A DNA stretch of 64,000 bases from a virus (IMGVR_UViG_3300021514_000002:299532-363531); one strand, 5' to 3'; positions 8,639 through 28,942 are shown, numbered from the stretch's first letter. The notes: a model not told the origin generated them from the letters alone. A program made the numbers and translations.

Positions 8639-10120
8639 ATGAACGAATTATTCGAAAACTGGGCAGAAACTAAAGCAGCATTGCTTGAAGGTCTTGACGC
8701 TCAAAAACAAAAGGTCGTAGCACCGCTGTTAGAAAATCAGAAAAATCATTTGATTGCTGAATCTGCAGCCGCTGGTTCTACTGCCGCACACGATATCGCT
8801 GGTTTCAGAAAGATTTTAATCCCAATGATCCGACGTATCATTCCAGGTACAATTGCTACTGAGCTTGTTGGTGTTCAACCAATGACTGGTCCAGTTGGAC
8901 TTGTATACACTTTACGTTACCGTTATACTGAAAGCGTATCTGCTACTTCACATGCTAACCCATTTGGTCTTCCAGGTGCAATTACAGCTGGTGATGAAGT
9001 ATTTGGTAACAGTTCACCAATCCGTCAATGGTATTCTGGCGCAGCTGGTCAACCTGTAGGTTCACCGTTAGTTGCTTCTGATGCACAGCCACAAGCACCT
9101 GGTGCCGGCGCTATCGCAGGTACAGACGCAGATGGAACAGTTGGTGCTGAAGCAATTGATACTGCATTGGCTTCTGGTCAAGCATGGCCTTCAAGCTTAG
9201 GTGCTTCTGCTGGTAACATTGGTTACGTTGACGGTCTTGGCCGTACAGTAGCTGGTTCAGTTTGGGGTGGTTCTGGTAGCTTTATTGAAGGTTCTGGTGG
9301 TCGTAAGATGACTATGGACGTTGTTAGTCAATCAGTTGAAGCTGGTTCACGTAAGTTACAAGCTGGTTGGACTATTGAAGCTATGCAAGATCTTAATGCA
9401 CAGCACGGTTTAGATCTTGAATCTGAAATGACACAGGCATTGTCTGCTGAAATCGTTCAAGAAATTGATCAAGAAATCATTACTGATCTTCTTGCCCTTG
9501 CAGGTACAGTAGATACATTTGATGGCGCTGGCGCTGGACAGTACAGCTTTAACAGTACTTCTGGTAACTATGCACCTGCATATGTTGGTGATCGTCTTGC
9601 TAACCTTGGTGTTATCATCAATCGTGTTGCAAATGAAATCGCACGTAAGACTCGTCGTGGCGCTGGCAACTTTATCGTTGTTTCTCCACTTATCGTTTCT
9701 GTTCTTCAGTCTGCTGCTAAGTCAGTATTCGCACCAGCTGTTGAAGGTTCATTCAAAGGTCCTAACAACTCTATGTTAGTTGGTACTTTAAACGGGACTA
9801 TCAAAGTATATAGTTACCTTTGGAACCAAGCAGGTGCAAACCTTGATCTTGGTGGTGGTGCTTCACCGCTTGAAAGTGCAAATGATACAATCCTTGTTGG
9901 TTATAAAGGTGGAAACGGAGAAACTGATACTGGTTACTTCTACTGCCCTTACATTCCATTGATGTCTTCTGGTGTTGTTGTTAATCCAACTACATTCCAA
10001 CCAGTTGTTAGTTTAATGACTCGCTACGGTAAGTCTGTTTTCACTAACACTGAAACATCCTTGGGCAATTCTGCAGATTATTACGGGAAAATAAATGTTG
10101 CAAATCTTGACCTTGTATAA
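8639..10120 (+). CDS. gp23: Major capsid protein
   Basis: VGVQPMTGPVGL, VEAGSRKLQAGWTIEAMQDL, YCPYIPL, MTRYG; LIAE/S prodomain cleavage site. Confidence 0.97.
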   Translation: MNELFENWAETKAALLEGLDAQKQKVVAPLLENQKNHLIAESAAAGSTAAHDIAGFRKILIPMIRRIIPGTIATELVGVQPMTGPVGLVYTLRYRYTESVSATSHANPFGLPGAITAGDEVFGNSSPIRQWYSGAAGQPVGSPLVASDAQPQAPGAGAIAGTDADGTVGAEAIDTALASGQAWPSSLGASAGNIGYVDGLGRTVAGSVWGGSGSFIEGSGGRKMTMDVVSQSVEAGSRKLQAGWTIEAMQDLNAQHGLDLESEMTQALSAEIVQEIDQEIITDLLALAGTVDTFDGAGAGQYSFNSTSGNYAPAYVGDRLANLGVIINRVANEIARKTRRGAGNFIVVSPLIVSVLQSAAKSVFAPAVEGSFKGPNNSMLVGTLNGTIKVYSYLWNQAGANLDLGGGASPLESANDTILVGYKGGNGETDTGYFYCPYIPLMSSGVVVNPTTFQPVVSLMTRYGKSVFTNTETSLGNSADYYGKINVANLDLV

Positions 10121-22535: not shown

Positions 22536-22982
22536 ATGGCAAGGAAAGGTATAAGAAAAGGATTATTCACTCCAAGGCATCCTGGAAAGTATGTTGGTAA
22601 TGTAAACAATATTGTTTACCGTTCTTCTTGGGAACTTTCCTTTATGAATTTTTTAGACAACAATACTAACATAGAAAAATGGGGCTCTGAAATTATTGCT
22701 ATTCCTTATCGCAAACCAACTACAGGCAGAATACACAAATACTATCCAGATTTTTGGATAAAATATAAAAGTAAGAACGGTAACGTAGTTCAAGAAGTTA
22801 TTGAAGTTAAACCAGAGAAAGAAACCCGCCAACCTACCACTGTAGGTAAAACTAAAAAAACACAATTATATGAAGCTATTACATGGTCAATAAATAAAGC
22901 AAAGTTTAAATCGGCGGCTCTTTTTTGTACTAAGTATGGGATGAAGTTTAGAGTGTTAACCGAAAAACATCTTTTTCATTAA
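22536..22982 (+). CDS. gp4: Head completion nuclease (TnsA-like)
   Basis: PRHPGKYVG, YRSSWEL.FM.FLD, WGSE.I.IPY, YYPDF, IEVKP.KET. Confidence 0.9.
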   Translation: MARKGIRKGLFTPRHPGKYVGNVNNIVYRSSWELSFMNFLDNNTNIEKWGSEIIAIPYRKPTTGRIHKYYPDFWIKYKSKNGNVVQEVIEVKPEKETRQPTTVGKTKKTQLYEAITWSINKAKFKSAALFCTKYGMKFRVLTEKHLFH

Positions 22983-23047
22983 CCGAAAGAACCATCCTAA
23001 TAATTATTGATAAATAGTTACATTGCCGTATTATAGGAATTATTTAA

Positions 23048-23488
23048 ATGACTACTGACACTACTGAAGTTGAAATGATTATTGAACATCCATTAGAAGA
23101 AATATTTGATATTGAATCAGGTACGACGCTAATACCTCGTACGGAGAAAACTACAGAATTAGTAGCGGGAGAAGAATATGATGATAAAGATAAAGAAATT
23201 GAAGATCAGTTTCAAGAAGTATATGACCATGCCCTTTCCGCATTCGAAGATCAAGTAGCAGAAGCAGAAGTTATTGAAGGAAAATATAAAGCACGCAACA
23301 TGGAAGTTGGTGTTCAGTTATTAAATACCGCCCTTGCCGCAGCAAAAGAAAAATCATCACTGAAACAACATAAAGATAAGACAGCACTCGCCAAAGGAAA
23401 ACTTACAGGGAAAACGGTCAACCACAATAACCTCATTATAGCTGACCGCAACGAGTTATTAAAAACGTTGATGAATAAAAAAGATTAA
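23048..23488 (+). CDS. Probable terminase small subunit
   Basis: 146 aa; R.MEV..QLL helix and C-terminal VNHNNLIIADRNELLK typical of gp16-like proteins; upstream of the large terminase. Confidence 0.6.
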   Translation: MTTDTTEVEMIIEHPLEEIFDIESGTTLIPRTEKTTELVAGEEYDDKDKEIEDQFQEVYDHALSAFEDQVAEAEVIEGKYKARNMEVGVQLLNTALAAAKEKSSLKQHKDKTALAKGKLTGKTVNHNNLIIADRNELLKTLMNKKD

Positions 23489-24606
23489 TCTAATATTTTC
23501 ATCGCAGATTCAAAAGCATCAGATATTAGTTCATCAACTTCAGTCATACTTTCAATATTATCCGATTCTTTTTTTTCTTCAATCTTAAATGTTATATCTT
23601 TTAGTTTCGGTAAGTTATCCAATGTTAATTCGTAATAATAGTTACATGGTTCTTTTGTGATTGTAGTTGTCGCACCATCTTCCGTAGTAATTGTTTCTGT
23701 CGGCTGATTAACGTATTTACCGTAGCGTGACATAAATGTTGCAAAAGGTGCAAAAGTATCAGGATCTACTACAATCTGAGCCATTGTTGGAATATATGGT
23801 GCGTAAATGTAACCAGTATCAGTTTCACCATTACCGCCTTTATATCCAATAATAGTTTTACCATGTTCAAGTCCGAAATCACAATATACTTTTATAGAAC
23901 CATACAATGTTCCAATGTATTCGATGTAGCCATAATCGTATTCATTAAGTGCTTGTGGTATAAAGTTGTTACTATTTTTTAGGATTTCTGCAACGGCTTC
24001 AGACGCGATTACAAAATTACCACAACCTCGACGTGATTTCCTTGCAATTGAATTTGCGCATGAACTTATAGATATCCCAATCTTCACAATTTTATTTTGA
24101 TCAATATCCTTACCATCCCCTACGATTTTTTCAACGTCAAGTGACGCTTTATGTGCAATCCCAGAAATATCATTTCTAATTTCTTCGTATATTTCTTTGG
24201 CGATTTCTGTACAAGGATTTACTTTATCATCAAATACCCCTGCGTTTATATCTTCTAAGGCTTCAAGTGATAAACGTGTTTCTAATTTTCGCGCCCCTGC
24301 TTCTACTGCTTGCGAATTTATAGTTAGACTAATTCTGGTACCTACGTTGTTTTCTTCGTCTATAGGTTCTTCGTCTGTTATTTCATATTCTAATGAAAAT
24401 ATTAATCCAACAGGCGCTGTCATTGGTTGCACCCCAACAAAATGTCTGACAGCTAGACTATCAATCACTTCTGATGTAATATTTCTAATCATGTCTGCGC
24501 TTGAACTTGCACCCATGCCCGCAACGCTTTCAAGATAATCGTCTGTATTTTTAAGCAATGTATCCTTAATTATGTCTTTTGTCTGCTCTGTATCTACTAC
24601 GTTCAT
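23485..24606 (-). CDS. Reduced major-capsid (gp23) paralog
   Basis: VGVQPMTAPVGL, VEAGARKL, IARKSRRGCGNF, GYKGGNGETDTGY, YAPYIP, FMSRYG; start at MNVVD (24606) after a GAGG SD. Confidence 0.85.
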   Translation of the reverse strand: MNVVDTEQTKDIIKDTLLKNTDDYLESVAGMGASSSADMIRNITSEVIDSLAVRHFVGVQPMTAPVGLIFSLEYEITDEEPIDEENNVGTRISLTINSQAVEAGARKLETRLSLEALEDINAGVFDDKVNPCTEIAKEIYEEIRNDISGIAHKASLDVEKIVGDGKDIDQNKIVKIGISISSCANSIARKSRRGCGNFVIASEAVAEILKNSNNFIPQALNEYDYGYIEYIGTLYGSIKVYCDFGLEHGKTIIGYKGGNGETDTGYIYAPYIPTMAQIVVDPDTFAPFATFMSRYGKYVNQPTETITTEDGATTTITKEPCNYYYELTLDNLPKLKDITFKIEEKKESDNIESMTEVDELISDAFESAMKILD

Positions 24607-24622
24607 AATTCTATCCTCTTTC

Positions 24623-24696
24623 TCTTTATTTACTACTTTAAAAATTAGACATCCCAATAGATTGGTAACCCAAAAATGTGTGGTAGTAAATAAAGA
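24623..24696. repeat. Perfect 14-bp inverted repeat GTAGTAAATAAAGA (divergent promoter-like)
   Basis: TCTTTATTTACTAC at 24623-24636 and GTAGTAAATAAAGA at 24683-24696. Confidence 0.8.
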
Positions 24697-24697
24697 T

Positions 24698-25486
24698 ATG
24701 AAAAAAGAAATATTAAACGAATTACATGAACGACAGAACTTGCTAAATCTTGTGATAAATTCTGCAAGAGATCCGTCTTATTTTATAGAACACTATGCGA
24801 AGATACAACATCCAACAAAAGGTGCTGTTCCTTTTAAACCATATAAAAAACAAGAACAGTTGTTATATTCGTATCAGGAAAATCGTTGGAATATAACATT
24901 GGGTTCTAGGCAGACAGGAATCACTATAACTAATGCACTATACGCCTTCTGGTTTGCTATGTTTAAATCAGATAAAACTATAATGATTGCGGGTGAAAAG
25001 TTGCGACATTCTAAAGATATTTTACATAGTATTAGATTTGCGTATGAAAATTTACCCAAGTGGCTACAAGCCCGCAATAAATTAGTGATCAATAATAAAT
25101 GTATGATGCAATTTGAAAATGGTACAAGGATTTTGGCGATAGCGCCGACTATATATGCAGTTAGAGGATTTTCGGTCGATCTTATGATATTAGATTGTTT
25201 TGCATATATGTCACCAAATAAACAAGAAGAATTTTATACGTCACTATATCCTGCAACAATGGGTTCAAAAAATAGTGTAATGATTATGAGTTCGACTGGC
25301 GGCGGATATGACGGGGTATTTACCTCCATTTGGGATGATGCTTTGGCGAAAAAGAATAAATTCGTGGCAAACTTTATTAAATGGAATGATGTACCTGAAC
25401 GGGATGATGGGTTCAAGGATTCAATGGTTTCCATGCTTGGAGAAACACGATGGAAAGTGGAGTATGAATGCTCTTTTGATAATTAA
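24698..25486 (+). CDS. Terminase large subunit ATPase-only paralog with degenerate Walker A/B
   Basis: Collinear with the N-terminal half of 25498; SRQTGIT vs ARQTGKS and ILDCFAY vs FLDEFAF; no nuclease domain. Confidence 0.85.
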   Translation: MKKEILNELHERQNLLNLVINSARDPSYFIEHYAKIQHPTKGAVPFKPYKKQEQLLYSYQENRWNITLGSRQTGITITNALYAFWFAMFKSDKTIMIAGEKLRHSKDILHSIRFAYENLPKWLQARNKLVINNKCMMQFENGTRILAIAPTIYAVRGFSVDLMILDCFAYMSPNKQEEFYTSLYPATMGSKNSVMIMSSTGGGYDGVFTSIWDDALAKKNKFVANFIKWNDVPERDDGFKDSMVSMLGETRWKVEYECSFDN

Positions 25487-25497
25487 GGAAGATTATA

Positions 25498-27054
25498 ATG
25501 GCGCGCGCAAAGAATGATAAGTTAAAAACCCCCGATCAGGAAGTTGAATTTACATATGAACAGGTACAAGAGCTAAAGCGTTGTGTTCAAGATCCTATTT
25601 ACTTTATAGAAAATTACGTTCAAATACAACATCCCGTTAAGGGTGCCGTTCCCTTTCGGTTATATCCATATCAAAAAAATATGATTCGTGCATATCAAGA
25701 TAACCGTTACACTGTAGTACTTTCTGCACGTCAAACTGGTAAATCTATAACATCCGCCGCCTACCTTCTTTGGTATGCAATGTTCCAGTTTGATAAAACC
25801 GTCCTGATTGCAGCCAATAAAAACGCAAATGCAATGGAAATGATTTTACGTATTCGTTTTGCATATGAAAATCTTCCAATGTGGTTGAAAGCTGGCGTTA
25901 AAGACGATGGTTGGAATAAACATGAAATTGGCTTTGATAATGGTTCCCGTATCGTGTCAACCGCAACATCGGAAGATTCTGGTCGTGGTATGGCTATTTC
26001 ACTTTTGTTCCTTGACGAATTTGCATTTGTAAAACCTAATATCCAAGATGAATTTTGGACATCAATAGCACCTACATTATCAACTGGTGGTTCGTGTATA
26101 ATGACATCAACGCCTAATGGTGACATGAATATTTATGCTCAGGTTTGGCGCGGTTCGCAAATGGGTACTAATGGATTTTTCCCTATACATGTTAAATGGG
26201 ACGAACCCCCAGGCAGAGATGGTAAGTTTAAAGAGGAGGAAACTGGAAGGATTGGTGTCCGTCGTTGGCAACAAGAATATGAATGTGTCTTTTTGTCATC
26301 AGATTCATTGCTTATTGATTCGTTATTTCTTACGAACCTAACGCCGTTAATTGAAGCAATCGTTCCTAAGCTTACTGTAAACGATGTTGTTTTGTTTGAT
26401 GAAATAAAACCAGCAAATACATATTTACTGGGTGTCGATCCTGCTACTGGCAGTGGTGAAGATTATAGTGTTATCACTATATTTGAATTTCCGTCAATGA
26501 CTCAGGTTGGTGAATATCGTAGTAATACAATGTCCACAAATGATTTATATGGTGTTATGAAAAATATATTAAAACATATAGAATCAAAAGGAGCGATGGT
26601 ATATTTCTCAATAGAAAATAACGGCGTTGGTCAGGGATTAATTGCATTATATGAAGCTGATGAAGAGCCATTAAAACTTGCTGAGTTTGTTTCAGAAGAC
26701 GGCAAGAATAAATTAGGATTCACAACAACAGCACGTAGTAAAATGCGCTCGTGTGTTAACCTGAAAGAAATGCTTGAAAAAGAAAATATGCATATTACTT
26801 CAAGAATCCTTTTATCTGAATTAAAGTCTTATGTTCGTTCACGTGGTGCATATGCAGCGCAAGCAGGTGCAACAGATGATTGTATAGCTGCAACGCTTAT
26901 TGTACTTAGATTAGTAGAAGAGATCGCGGCGTATGAGCAGGCGGCGTTTGATAAACTATATGCAGGCGATTATGATGAATGGAAGCAATCAGACTGGGAT
27001 GGATATGAAGAAGGATACGATGAAAACGACGAGGGATTGCCTAGTATATTTTAA
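25498..27054 (+). CDS. gp17: Terminase large subunit
   Basis: LYPYQ, ARQTGKS, FLDEFAF, TSTPNG, LGVDPATG.G.DYS nuclease motif, IENNGVG, DDCIAA. Confidence 0.95.
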   Translation: MARAKNDKLKTPDQEVEFTYEQVQELKRCVQDPIYFIENYVQIQHPVKGAVPFRLYPYQKNMIRAYQDNRYTVVLSARQTGKSITSAAYLLWYAMFQFDKTVLIAANKNANAMEMILRIRFAYENLPMWLKAGVKDDGWNKHEIGFDNGSRIVSTATSEDSGRGMAISLLFLDEFAFVKPNIQDEFWTSIAPTLSTGGSCIMTSTPNGDMNIYAQVWRGSQMGTNGFFPIHVKWDEPPGRDGKFKEEETGRIGVRRWQQEYECVFLSSDSLLIDSLFLTNLTPLIEAIVPKLTVNDVVLFDEIKPANTYLLGVDPATGSGEDYSVITIFEFPSMTQVGEYRSNTMSTNDLYGVMKNILKHIESKGAMVYFSIENNGVGQGLIALYEADEEPLKLAEFVSEDGKNKLGFTTTARSKMRSCVNLKEMLEKENMHITSRILLSELKSYVRSRGAYAAQAGATDDCIAATLIVLRLVEEIAAYEQAAFDKLYAGDYDEWKQSDWDGYEEGYDENDEGLPSIF

Positions 27055-27063
27055 ACAACATTA

Positions 27064-27702
27064 TCATGAATAATGTTGTTTAATAATCTCAGTGCTTGCC
27101 CCAACATCAATAATAACGGGTTGGTTTTTATATATGCCCCAATTTGCTAATCGCGTAAAATCGGCTGGCTCGATATCATAATTACCAACTAGATCTACAA
27201 GACTATTAAGAGTTTCGTTTTCTTCATAGATCTCTTCATATCTTGCTTGGGTTTCTTCATCAACACGAATATTCCATTTACCTGTCATAAATTTTACAAG
27301 GTGAATTGCTTCATCTGGCGTTAAACCATTAAAAAATTGTTTGAACTGCGTTGGTTTCATTTTTTCAGCTTTTTCAACATGAATCCATGTAGGTGGATTG
27401 TTTTCTTCATCGAAATCAATCATAGGAATTGTAATACCCATATCAGTAAGATAGTAATCGCCAAACATTTGGGATTCGTATTCATTCTGGGCAATACCTT
27501 TTTTATTTTTGGCAATTTTTAATATCGTTGCACGTCCTTCGTATTCAATTTCAAAGGCGATTCGGGATGAACCTGTTCCAATTTTTGCCGCCCGTTCTTG
27601 AGCGTAACGAACGCGTTGTGCAAACGGAACATTCTGTTTGTATTTTGATTTATCCCAATCATCGGGTAATGGCGCTTCTTTTAATAATTCTTTGATTTTC
27701 AT
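27064..27702 (-). CDS. Protein-kinase-like fold protein
   Basis: IGTGSSRIAF (Gly loop), ILKIAK, QNEYE, DFTRLANWG (catalytic loop), IIDVG (DFG-like). Confidence 0.6.
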   Translation of the reverse strand: MKIKELLKEAPLPDDWDKSKYKQNVPFAQRVRYAQERAAKIGTGSSRIAFEIEYEGRATILKIAKNKKGIAQNEYESQMFGDYYLTDMGITIPMIDFDEENNPPTWIHVEKAEKMKPTQFKQFFNGLTPDEAIHLVKFMTGKWNIRVDEETQARYEEIYEENETLNSLVDLVGNYDIEPADFTRLANWGIYKNQPVIIDVGASTEIIKQHYS

Positions 27703-27718
27703 GATATAGTATTTATCC

Positions 27719-27747
27719 TTGACATTTAAAAATAGTCATGATAAGCT
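27719..27747 (+). promoter_or_regulatory. sigma70-type promoter
   Basis: TTGACA-N17-TAAGCT with extended TG; the ORF-track TTG start at 27719 is this -35 box. Confidence 0.7.
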
Positions 27748-27775
27748 ATATAAAATTATTATGACTGGTAGAAAG

Positions 27776-28942
27776 ATGAGAGATTTAAAAACATTATTTA
27801 TTAGATGGTATTTCAACGAATTCGCAGATCTTGATCCGCTACACGTTGAAATGTCTAAATTATCCGAAGATTCTCCATGGCACAGGGAACGAACTATTGC
27901 TGTCCATACCAACATGGTAGTTGGGGAGTATTTGTCCCGTGTGTGTGCTAAATATGGCGAAAATGAATGGTCTGCTGCTGATCTTTATGGGGCTTTTGCC
28001 TGCGCTTTTCACGATGTTGGGAAGCCCGCAGCACGAACAGAAGCATATACACCAGCGCGCGGCACATACTACCGCTACGGTGGACATGAACTGATTTCTG
28101 CACGCTTGTGGGAAGATTGGGCTGTTCGTAACTGGAAATTCTTGGAAGAAGAATTTGGCCTGACATCACATGGAATTTATGCGACAGGTTGGTTAATTGA
28201 AAACCATCTTCCTTGGGATGTGAAGAAGCCAGAAAAGCGCCGTCAATTAGCACTTGGTGTGAAGCACGCTGTGCGCGATCCTGAACGTTTCATTAATGTG
28301 GTGCAAGCGGATACTTGGGGTCGTATTTCTGATGATGCCACGGAAAAGCGACAAAAAACCGAGGATTGGTGCAATGATTTCCTCCGCCTTTTTAAAGAGG
28401 TTAAGGAAGAATATAAAACACGATACGTGAATCCAGATGCGCCTATTATGTATATGCCAATCGCCGCTTCGGGTTCAGGGAAATCTACGTTGCTTAATAG
28501 TGAAAGTATGGATTGTGTGCTGGACTGTGATAATGTTGAAGGTGAATTATTGCACTTCTCATTAGATACGTTACGCCATGATTGGTATGATCCTGACGAT
28601 TACCGAAATGCATTCGCCTTGGCGTGTGATGATAAAGATTTTGCAAACAAAGCTAATAAAGTTTTTGCAGACATGGTGAAGACAGGTAATAGTATTTATC
28701 TTGATAATATCAACATTTCCAAGAAGCGTCGTGCTAACTATATACGTGAAGCACGTAAGTATGGGTACGTGGTTTATGCTATTTTGCTTCCTATCGAATT
28801 GCAGACAGTCATGGATAGACAGGCTACGCGTAGTGATAAAATGGTACCAATTGATGTGGTGAAGAACCATTATATGGGACTTAGCTTGCCTTCCTTGGGT
28901 GAAGTTGATCGGATTATTGTATATAGCGGTAATCTACCTTAA
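27776..28942 (+). CDS. HD phosphohydrolase fused to a P-loop (polynucleotide kinase-like) domain
   Basis: HRERTIAVHT..., AFHDVGKP, GGHELISA (HD domain); MPIAASGSGKSTL and YLDNINISKKRR (AAA_33-like kinase). Confidence 0.75.
   Translation: MRDLKTLFIRWYFNEFADLDPLHVEMSKLSEDSPWHRERTIAVHTNMVVGEYLSRVCAKYGENEWSAADLYGAFACAFHDVGKPAARTEAYTPARGTYYRYGGHELISARLWEDWAVRNWKFLEEEFGLTSHGIYATGWLIENHLPWDVKKPEKRRQLALGVKHAVRDPERFINVVQADTWGRISDDATEKRQKTEDWCNDFLRLFKEVKEEYKTRYVNPDAPIMYMPIAASGSGKSTLLNSESMDCVLDCDNVEGELLHFSLDTLRHDWYDPDDYRNAFALACDDKDFANKANKVFADMVKTGNSIYLDNINISKKRRANYIREARKYGYVVYAILLPIELQTVMDRQATRSDKMVPIDVVKNHYMGLSLPSLGEVDRIIVYSGNLP

Follow-up and report, generated by a model that had tools for sequence, protein, structure and literature searches.

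In the textbook view terminase motors are homomeric ring ATPases made up of TerL and TerS, the large and the small terminase subunit, and the isolated ATPase domain of the T4 large subunit gp17 is a stable unit that interacts with the small subunit gp16. A 'truncated large terminase' has been described in phage CBB by Buttimer et al. (2017), who found it to be common to other Rak2-like phages, phiM12 and phiN3, and termed it 'unusual' (PMC5259590); their account is confined to the incompleteness of the domain and mentions neither the loss of catalytic residues, nor selection, nor the spread of such genes. A search of the literature returned no functional study of truncated or pseudo-ATPase terminases, and a comparative review of jumbo phages makes no mention of the family (PMC7824862). 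The present work concerns a gene of this kind at positions 24698-25486 (plus strand) of a 64,000-nucleotide stretch of viral DNA (IMGVR_UViG_3300021514_000002:299532-363531), hereafter the window, which forms the end (the last 64 kb) of a virus record 363,531 bp in length from a hydrothermal-vent metagenome. Its product (P0001), a protein of 262 amino acids (aa), is a nuclease-less paralog of the ATPase domain of TerL, recognised as such by homology to TerL, by its match to PHROG 5989 and by its fold, in which the residues that serve hydrolysis are replaced. An earlier reading of the window, made from the sequence alone (the original prediction), had implied that this protein was unique. This was mistaken, since the protein is not singular but belongs to a large and widespread 'truncated large terminase' family, found beside terL in many T4-like jumbo phages and already briefly in print since 2017 (PMC5259590).

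The Rak2-type genes (CBB_274, whose membership is taken from the description in PMC5259590, and the 121Q gp3/PBECO4/RaK2 homologs) likewise encode a gp17 ATPase-type domain alone, directly upstream of the complete terL of a jumbo myovirus related to T4. Their products are shorter (~227 aa), far more diverged and linked to the window protein via profile comparison only (121Q gp3 aligns with the profile of the family at an HHalign probability of 88% and E 3e-6, a comparatively weak link), and they fall in PHROG 27915, of 'unknown function'. The window protein, unlike them, comprises a complete ATPase domain up to the hinge. At the Walker A site 121Q gp3 reads R-x-G-T-T and at Walker B RG...D-M; its homologs are found in 47 cultured Rak2-type phage records, the gene overlapping the start of terL. 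Two other cultured phages carry stand-alone members that end at the same boundary as the window protein and are 22-26% identical to it. One is gp242 of the Xanthomonas phage Xoo-sp13 (QDJ96428.1; L003:5196-5888), directly upstream of terL, in which both the Walker A Lys and the catalytic Glu are missing (YRESGTS / LLDVNG) and for which the profile evidence is strong (HHalign probability 98.4%, E 7e-15; PHROG 5989, 4e-28). The other is XYS97501.1 of the Sinorhizobium phage Phosso (L011:1312-2154; GRSMGIT / FADNAS, again without these two residues; tblastn E 2e-14), the gene for which, unlike that of the window, lies beside the major capsid gene, 52 kb from terL. Both proteins are labelled 'terminase small subunit' in GenBank. 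These labels appear to be positional guesses; the genuine gp16-type TerS of Xoo-sp13 is an unlabelled 168-aa frame at position 160621-161031 of the record. Mis-annotation of this sort, under either 'terminase small subunit' or 'large terminase subunit', is recurrent and can lead phylogenies and the annotation of genomes astray.

A different state is seen in the Sinorhizobium phage phiM12, where a 196-aa paralog of the TerL N-domain (E 2e-43 to the family profile) is found in the order TerS - paralog - TerL. Unlike the window protein, this copy retains ERATGKT and YIDEIEY and stops earlier, right past the coupling motif, and to judge from these motifs it may still be able to bind or hydrolyse ATP. 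The ATPase domain of T4 gp17 itself (N360; PDB 2O0H/2O0J) shares fold and domain boundaries with the window protein at 27% identity, but it belongs to a catalytic enzyme (K166, E256, TTT), whereas the window protein is a separate product in which those sites are replaced. By analogy, several non-catalytic subunits of ring and clamp ATPases (clamp-loader delta/delta-prime, Rad51 paralogs, FtsHi) are likewise duplicated ATPase folds that have been retained without hydrolysis, presumably in a structural or regulatory partnership in which an arginine can still be offered to the adjacent subunit, although they have only the ASCE (additional strand catalytic glutamate) fold in common with the protein discussed here, for which a similar partnership would be proposed by resemblance alone. 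The occurrence of the family in cultured phages of E. coli, Klebsiella, Xanthomonas and Sinorhizobium makes it open to direct testing.

The paralog and its active site

The reading frame of the window gene is open, with 262 codons followed by TAA, and its product is collinear with residues 31-265 of the TerL encoded next to it (BLASTP, 43% identity over 237 aa, E 8e-70). It matches PHROG 5989 'terminase large subunit' (1e-37) and, in profile comparison, T4 gp17 (E 3e-33), and its score of 20.4 bits for Pfam Terminase_6N is below the gathering cut-off of 22. An alternative GTG start codon at 24680 would yield 268 aa; the orthologs P0005 and P0006 start at the residue that matches the ATG at 24698. 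At the other end, the protein terminates in EYECSFDN*, with its stop four residues past EYEC, whereas the corresponding EYECVFLS of TerL runs on into the nuclease domain. A Pfam scan of the paralog gave no match to Terminase_6C (RNase H-like nuclease), and Pfam and PHROG scans gave none to the TerS families (gp16 / phrog_445). The paralog is the upstream gene of the pair, its stop codon being separated by 11 bp from the start of TerL (P0002; 25498-27054, plus strand), a full-length protein of 518 aa with both the ATPase and the RNase H-like nuclease domain (Pfam Terminase_6N 6e-12, Terminase_6C 6e-6), in which K82, E174 and the STP motif (S204-T205-P206) are intact. The collinearity with TerL, the 11-bp spacing, the residue changes, the EYEC end and the open frame had all been described correctly in the original prediction, as was found on re-checking; the length, given there as 263 aa, is actually 262 aa. 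The paralog very probably arose long ago through tandem duplication of the 5' half of terL and has been maintained by selection. Two other explanations of the gene pair were considered and ruled out: a fusion or frameshift product of paralog and TerL, given that the two are in different frames with an intervening stop and that no double-ATPase protein is found in the 150 best relatives, and one half of a split gene awaiting trans-splicing, given that the downstream TerL is complete.

An AlphaFold2 model computed on a 34-sequence alignment predicts that the complete ATPase domain, including the lid, is folded, with a predicted local distance difference test (pLDDT) value of 94.5. This model supersedes an earlier run on a 5-sequence alignment, in which the pLDDT was 74.6 and the C-terminus disordered. 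In a Foldseek search it was matched to the ATPase domain of T4 gp17 (2o0j/2o0h, N-subdomains I and II) with a template modelling (TM) score of 0.84, a root-mean-square deviation of 2.2 Å and an E value of 3e-20, and the Avs3-TerL complex 8dgc was also among the fold matches.

Within this fold the catalytic positions are changed. Ile75 (24920-24922, plus strand; codon ATC) stands at the position of the Walker A Lys, in SRQTGIT, where TerL has ARQTGKS (K82) and T4 gp17 SRQLGKT. Cys167 (25196-25198, plus strand; codon TGT) takes the place of the catalytic Glu after the Walker B Asp, ILDCFAY corresponding to FLDEFAF in TerL (E174). The coupling (C) motif, located by alignment with TerL, is degenerate, Ser199-Thr200-Gly201 (25292-25300, plus strand) being aligned with S204-T205-P206, in a region that reads SSTGGG versus TSTPNG. 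Arg156-Gly157 (25163-25168, plus strand), on the other hand, is retained, with Arg156 10 residues ahead of the Walker B Asp, between helix 2 and strand 3, and this pair is invariant in all five orthologs. The trans-acting arginine finger of the P74-26 TerL, R139, sits in the same stretch, in which T4 has an arginine too (PMC5727402).

How far this pattern of loss and retention holds in the family was read from one exhaustive profile search, in which 34 short members without the Walker A Lys were compared with 76 full-length TerLs. The Walker A Lys is present in 76/76 of the TerLs, but the paralog set was defined by this column, which therefore cannot count as independent evidence. The Glu column can, and the catalytic Glu is found in 100% of TerLs versus 9% of paralogs. 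Frequencies in paralogs are also lower for the coupling motif, both for its Thr (100% versus 59%) and for its Pro and its Gly (each 93% versus 21%), and for a Thr six residues before the Arg-Gly pair (86% versus 3%). Other positions are kept, namely the P-loop Arg (100% in both sets), the P-loop Gln (99% of TerLs, 97% of paralogs), the adenine-motif Gln (100% and 97%), the Walker B Asp (99% and 88%) and, in the Arg-Gly pair before Walker B, the Gly (96% and 100%) and for the most part the Arg (99% and 71%, with Lys in a further 15% of paralogs). The replacements are free to vary across the family, T, I, L, V, S, M, N and others being found at the Lys site and N, D, S, C, Q and G at the Glu site, which argues for relaxed sites and against a new catalytic solution. 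In T4 gp17 genetics from the Rao laboratory, no substitution of K166 or E256 is reportedly tolerated, all of them abolishing function. Since the Walker A Lys, the catalytic Glu and most of the coupling motif are gone, the paralog, on the evidence of its sequence, almost certainly neither hydrolyses ATP nor translocates DNA.

Conservation and spread of the family

Orthologs came from a word-index search limited to short proteins, which retrieved P0004-P0006 (87%, 59% and 50% identity), and from a metagenome scan, which added L006 (45%) as a fifth lineage. The five lineages are of about equal length and have no stop or frameshift down to 45% identity; the four complete ones end alike (EYECxFxD/N*), and L006 runs off its contig after EYECSK. 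The residues at the Walker A Lys position are I, I, I, L and L, and those at the catalytic Glu position C, C, D, N and S. The Nei-Gojobori ratio of non-synonymous to synonymous substitution rates (dN/dS) of the paralog is 0.22-0.36, values which are upper estimates because dS is saturated (>1.2); for the window versus L001, the ratio of the uncorrected proportions (pN/pS) comes to 0.38 (bootstrap 95% interval 0.30-0.46). A comparison of homologs had been proposed in the original prediction, and its outcome is a loss of both Lys and Glu that is fixed across the five lineages, at a dN/dS of about 0.2-0.36, below 1. The claim at the centre of that prediction, a preserved paralog of the TerL ATPase without its residues for hydrolysis, is thereby borne out by the ortholog alignment and by dN/dS, and it is well supported by these sequence comparisons that the gene is under purifying selection and not decaying. 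It is nevertheless under weaker constraint than TerL, dN being 0.27 for the paralog versus 0.057 for TerL in the comparison with L001 and 0.49 versus 0.07-0.10 in that with L006/L007, and the paralog is 45-60% identical between lineages where TerL is 86-91% identical.

The family extends well beyond these five lineages. Among the 150 best cluster representatives (50% identity clusters), about 35 are short proteins (228-314 aa) in which the Walker A Lys is missing, and family members stop 1-9 residues past the motif equivalent to EYEC. In a quick maximum-likelihood tree 29/35 of the short Lys-less proteins form one group next to the TerLs of this lineage, with moderate support (89 SH-aLRT, the Shimodaira-Hasegawa-like approximate likelihood ratio test) and several nodes unresolved. 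Nearly all of the short Lys-less copies with readable gene neighbours stand beside terL. The paralog immediately precedes terL in the window, in the P0004 contig, L001, the P0006 contig, L024, L014/L015 (a 368-kb contig), L016, L017 and L022 and, among cultured phages, in Xoo-sp13, the 121Q/RaK2-type phages and phiM12; in L013 it is directly downstream. Several distant short clusters retain GKT and DE, as does phiM12, and the loss of catalysis is therefore a derived state within the family and not what defines it. ORF256 of phage XacN1, which lies upstream of its terL, was tried as a further member and rejected (HHalign probability 0.3%).

Two side observations concern related proteins. In L017:514-2529 and L016:534-2132, terL is preceded by two degenerate paralogs in tandem (~220 aa and ~265 aa), the first copy of which is far more eroded. 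In addition, three full-length TerL-like proteins with a nuclease domain, P0127 (548 aa), P0136 (571 aa) and P0024 (612 aa), also lack the Walker A Lys (LGLT, LGMT and TGIS, respectively). P0127 and P0136 retain the catalytic DE, and P0024 has ED at the same place; the three are pseudo-terminases of full length or, alternatively, TerLs whose P-loop is deviant.

Possible roles of the paralog

A deeply conserved, hydrolysis-dead copy of the motor domain, maintained by selection in the terminase operon throughout a branch of the jumbo phages, suggests a further layer in the system, be it motor regulation, assembly control or immune evasion. The original prediction had put forward, as conjectures, a brake on the motor, a poison for the motor of a competitor and a sponge for terminase-sensing immune receptors. 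The reading that we tentatively prefer, with a probability of roughly 0.4, is that of a non-catalytic terminase-binding subunit with a regulatory or assembly function. In such a scenario the paralog would be a partner of the terminase that acts through binding, not catalysis. It would dock on the ATPase domain of TerL, and possibly on TerS, via oligomerisation surfaces kept by the fold, which would include the retained P-loop Arg and the Arg-Gly at the site of the trans-arginine finger. With its arginine face kept and its nucleotide face dead, it could cap TerL or pair with it off the portal, and it might tune or chaperone TerL assembly (with TerS) and the ATPase or nuclease activity of TerL before or during portal docking. 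Its expression would be late, from its own conserved promoter-like element and on the same transcript as TerL. It is known that the isolated TerL ATPase domain oligomerises readily and that the arginine acts in trans in the active site of the neighbour (PMC5727402), and that T4 motors take in ATPase-dead gp17 subunits (PMC8589836). A complex prediction for TerL and the paralog gave a score of 0.00, which is counted neither for nor against binding. Working membership in the portal-bound pentamer is unlikely because the C-terminal domain is missing. The window phage, Xoo-sp13 and phiM12 each have a separate gp16-type TerS, and the paralog is therefore a third gene of the terminase module. That it would also be an integral non-catalytic subunit of a three-component terminase, in the lineages of the vent phage, Xoo-sp13 and Phosso and in the Rak2/121Q-type coliphages, is a more doubtful proposal; the retained arginine might for example be given in trans, switching the TerL ATPase on or holding it off away from the portal. 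If true, the packaging motor of a virus would here be regulated by a pseudoenzyme, for which no precedent has been described.

Several points weigh against a binding subunit of this kind. Inactive subunits in the T4 motor lower its packaging efficiency (PMC8589836), and a simple dead ring subunit would therefore be costly. In XacN1 no member of the family lies directly upstream of terL, and the family is therefore dispensable in at least some related phages, and the Phosso gene is 52 kb away from its terL. Lastly, the paralog evolves about five times faster than its TerL, which is more than expected of the obligate partner of a very conserved enzyme. This fast evolution would fit an arms race, and an anti-defence decoy or shield has been considered for this reason among others. 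The paralog would mimic TerL to sensors of the Avs1-3 type (signal transduction ATPases with numerous domains, STAND), or would cover TerL, and so blunt abortive infection. The TerL fold is kept while catalysis is lost, the distribution in related jumbo phages is patchy, and Avs systems are known to respond to TerL as a trigger (bioRxiv 10.1101/2025.07.08.663546), an Avs3-TerL complex (8dgc) being among the fold matches of the model. A look-alike that binds the sensor would, however, be expected to trigger it and not to silence it, and the tight linkage to terL over very deep divergence fits a morphogenetic partner better than an accessory anti-defence gene. In the published Avs3-TerL structure the active site of the ATPase and the nuclease domain reportedly take part in recognition, both of which are wanting in the paralog, and altogether a decoy seems unlikely. 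A role in DNA recognition or packaging initiation, in which the paralog would replace or assist gp16, as its GenBank label in Xoo-sp13 and Phosso would suggest, is distinctly unlikely. The slot just upstream of terL is the position of gene 16 in T4, no phrog_445 match for TerS was found in 121Q or Phosso, and gene 16 was listed by the authors of RaK2 among the missing T4 core genes (PMC3622015); in those lineages a role akin to that of TerS would still be conceivable. Against this stand the genuine gp16-type TerS genes of the window phage, Xoo-sp13 and phiM12 and the nature of the protein, which has the fold of the TerL ATPase and no similarity to any TerS family. For the window phage, replacement of TerS by the paralog is ruled out by the gp16-type gene at 23048-23488.

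The finding that dead subunits impair T4 motors (PMC8589836) can also be turned into a case for an inter-phage weapon, a dominant-negative ATPase domain that would poison the terminase of co-infecting relatives and spare that of its own phage, and the fast sequence evolution would be in accord. This is nonetheless very unlikely, as the paralog is closest to its own TerL lineage (43% identity versus 37-39% to other TerLs), which would entail self-poisoning, as the cognate TerL shows no sign of a matching immunity feature and as conservation beside terL over deep time is unlike that of a conflict gene. The retention of R71, Q72, G74 and D166, together with the existence of full-length proteins that lack the Walker A Lys and have the Glu (P0127 and P0136), might be taken to mean that the paralog is still an enzyme, either a non-canonical nucleoside triphosphatase or a nucleotide-binding switch that works via the P-loop Arg/Gln and the Walker B Asp. 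Binding of a nucleotide that is not hydrolysed would be conceivable. Free variation at the Lys and Glu positions, which is the mark of relaxed sites and not of a new active site, and the reported intolerance of T4 gp17 to any change of K166 or E256 make this highly improbable. There is finally the view that the gene is a functionless remnant, left open by chance, of a duplication or of a terL rearrangement mediated by inteins or homing endonucleases, elements which have often invaded the terL genes of the group, in some cases exactly at the EYEC boundary (P0007, P0009, L007, L022). It is at odds with a frame and a length that are intact at saturated synonymous divergence, with the confident predicted fold, with more than 30 divergent clusters and with the conserved upstream element, and it is effectively refuted by the selection data (pN/pS 0.38, upper bound 0.46).

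Gene neighbourhood, upstream signals and inteins in terL

The window phage is a T4-related jumbo myovirus, as homologs of gp13, gp15, sheath, tube, a gp4-type head-completion nuclease, gp23 and gp17 are present. Its locus is present in two hydrothermal-vent DNA metagenome runs, with no RNA run listed with it; the second vent run contains contigs identical to the window, which are fragments outside the paralog. No near-identical DNA to the locus was found in cultured phages, and a scan of IMG/VR returned distant TerLs only. The gene order gp4-like, TerS, gp23-like (opposite strand), paralog and TerL is kept across relatives. The first of these genes (22536-22982, plus strand) encodes a TnsA-like nuclease-fold protein of 148 aa, a homolog of the T4 head-completion protein gp4 (PF08722, 8e-20; phrog_218 'head closure', 1.5e-50), and is flanked by the genes for a 457-aa tail-tube-like protein and TerS, as is usual for the phage group. 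The gp16-type TerS (23048-23488, plus strand; 146 aa), which is 77-81% identical to the L001 and L006 copies, is the sole match to phrog_445 'terminase small subunit' (1.4e-7) in the whole 363.5-kb genome. The gp23-like capsid paralog (23485-24606, minus strand; Pfam Gp23, 2e-53) is divergently transcribed from an intergenic region that it shares with the terminase paralog. It has 35% identity to the main gp23 elsewhere in the genome (at about 8705-10057 of the window) and is possibly a gp24-type vertex protein. This neighbour is also found in the P0004, L001, P0006, L006 and L024 contexts and not in L013, L014 and L017; it is fast-evolving, with 41-51% identity between lineages, and has a conserved acidic tail that ends in ...AMKILD.

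The 91-bp intergenic region between these two divergent genes (24607-24697) is strikingly conserved in four lineages and contains two inverted AGTAAATA(A)AGA elements. Abutting the ATG of the terminase paralog is the conserved element GTAGTAAATAAAGAT (24683-24700, plus strand), which resembles a T4 late promoter (TAAATA). At the start codon, 15/16 bases of AGTAAATA.AGATATG are invariant in four lineages in which synonymous sites are saturated, and an exact inverted copy of the element stands ahead of the capsid-paralog gene, at 24623-24636. The centre of the region is occupied by a palindrome, CCAATAGATTGG (24654-24665, without strand), inside a block, CATTCCAATAGATTGGTAACCCAAA, that is conserved in the window, L001, L006 and partly L024. 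The TAAATA element looks like a late promoter of the paralog, and the whole region may serve both paralogs, that of the capsid protein and that of the terminase, as a common late promoter and operator, as far as its sequence allows one to judge. The usual spacing of late promoters would put the start of transcription at or next to the AUG, and a leaderless mRNA or one with a very short leader would therefore be implied. The paralog has no clear Shine-Dalgarno sequence, and TerL has AAGGAAG, which spans the stop codon of the paralog; this layout suggests that the paralog and TerL are co-transcribed late and that the former is possibly produced in lower amount. A scan of 23000-27800 for sigma-70 promoters and terminators gave nothing above the shuffled background.

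Inteins are a recurrent feature of the terL genes of the group. In the TerL of the relative that has the L006 paralog (L007:120-3353; VAPL010901695.1), an intein-like insertion is located exactly after the Walker A GK, and the gene is divided into three open reading frames (ORFs). The first encodes the N-extein followed by ~37 aa starting with CFFYST, the second is a free-standing endonuclease-like ORF of 380 aa, and the third reads ...ILSHN, then SVTSAAY and the remaining part of TerL. The arrangement resembles that of a naturally split intein between whose halves a homing-endonuclease gene is placed. In L022:1060-2828 a short intein N-fragment is found just before Walker B (SLLY, then CLSPSTD...), followed by a stop and a large ORF, and in P0007 and P0009 intein N-fragments begin right after EYEC (CAPDADVTIR... 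and CVGFDELVKV..., respectively). We take the fragments in L022, P0007 and P0009 to resemble a kind of atypical split intein that has been described in terL. As the paralog, too, ends at EYEC, inteins at this boundary may hint at the origin of N-terminal terL fragments.

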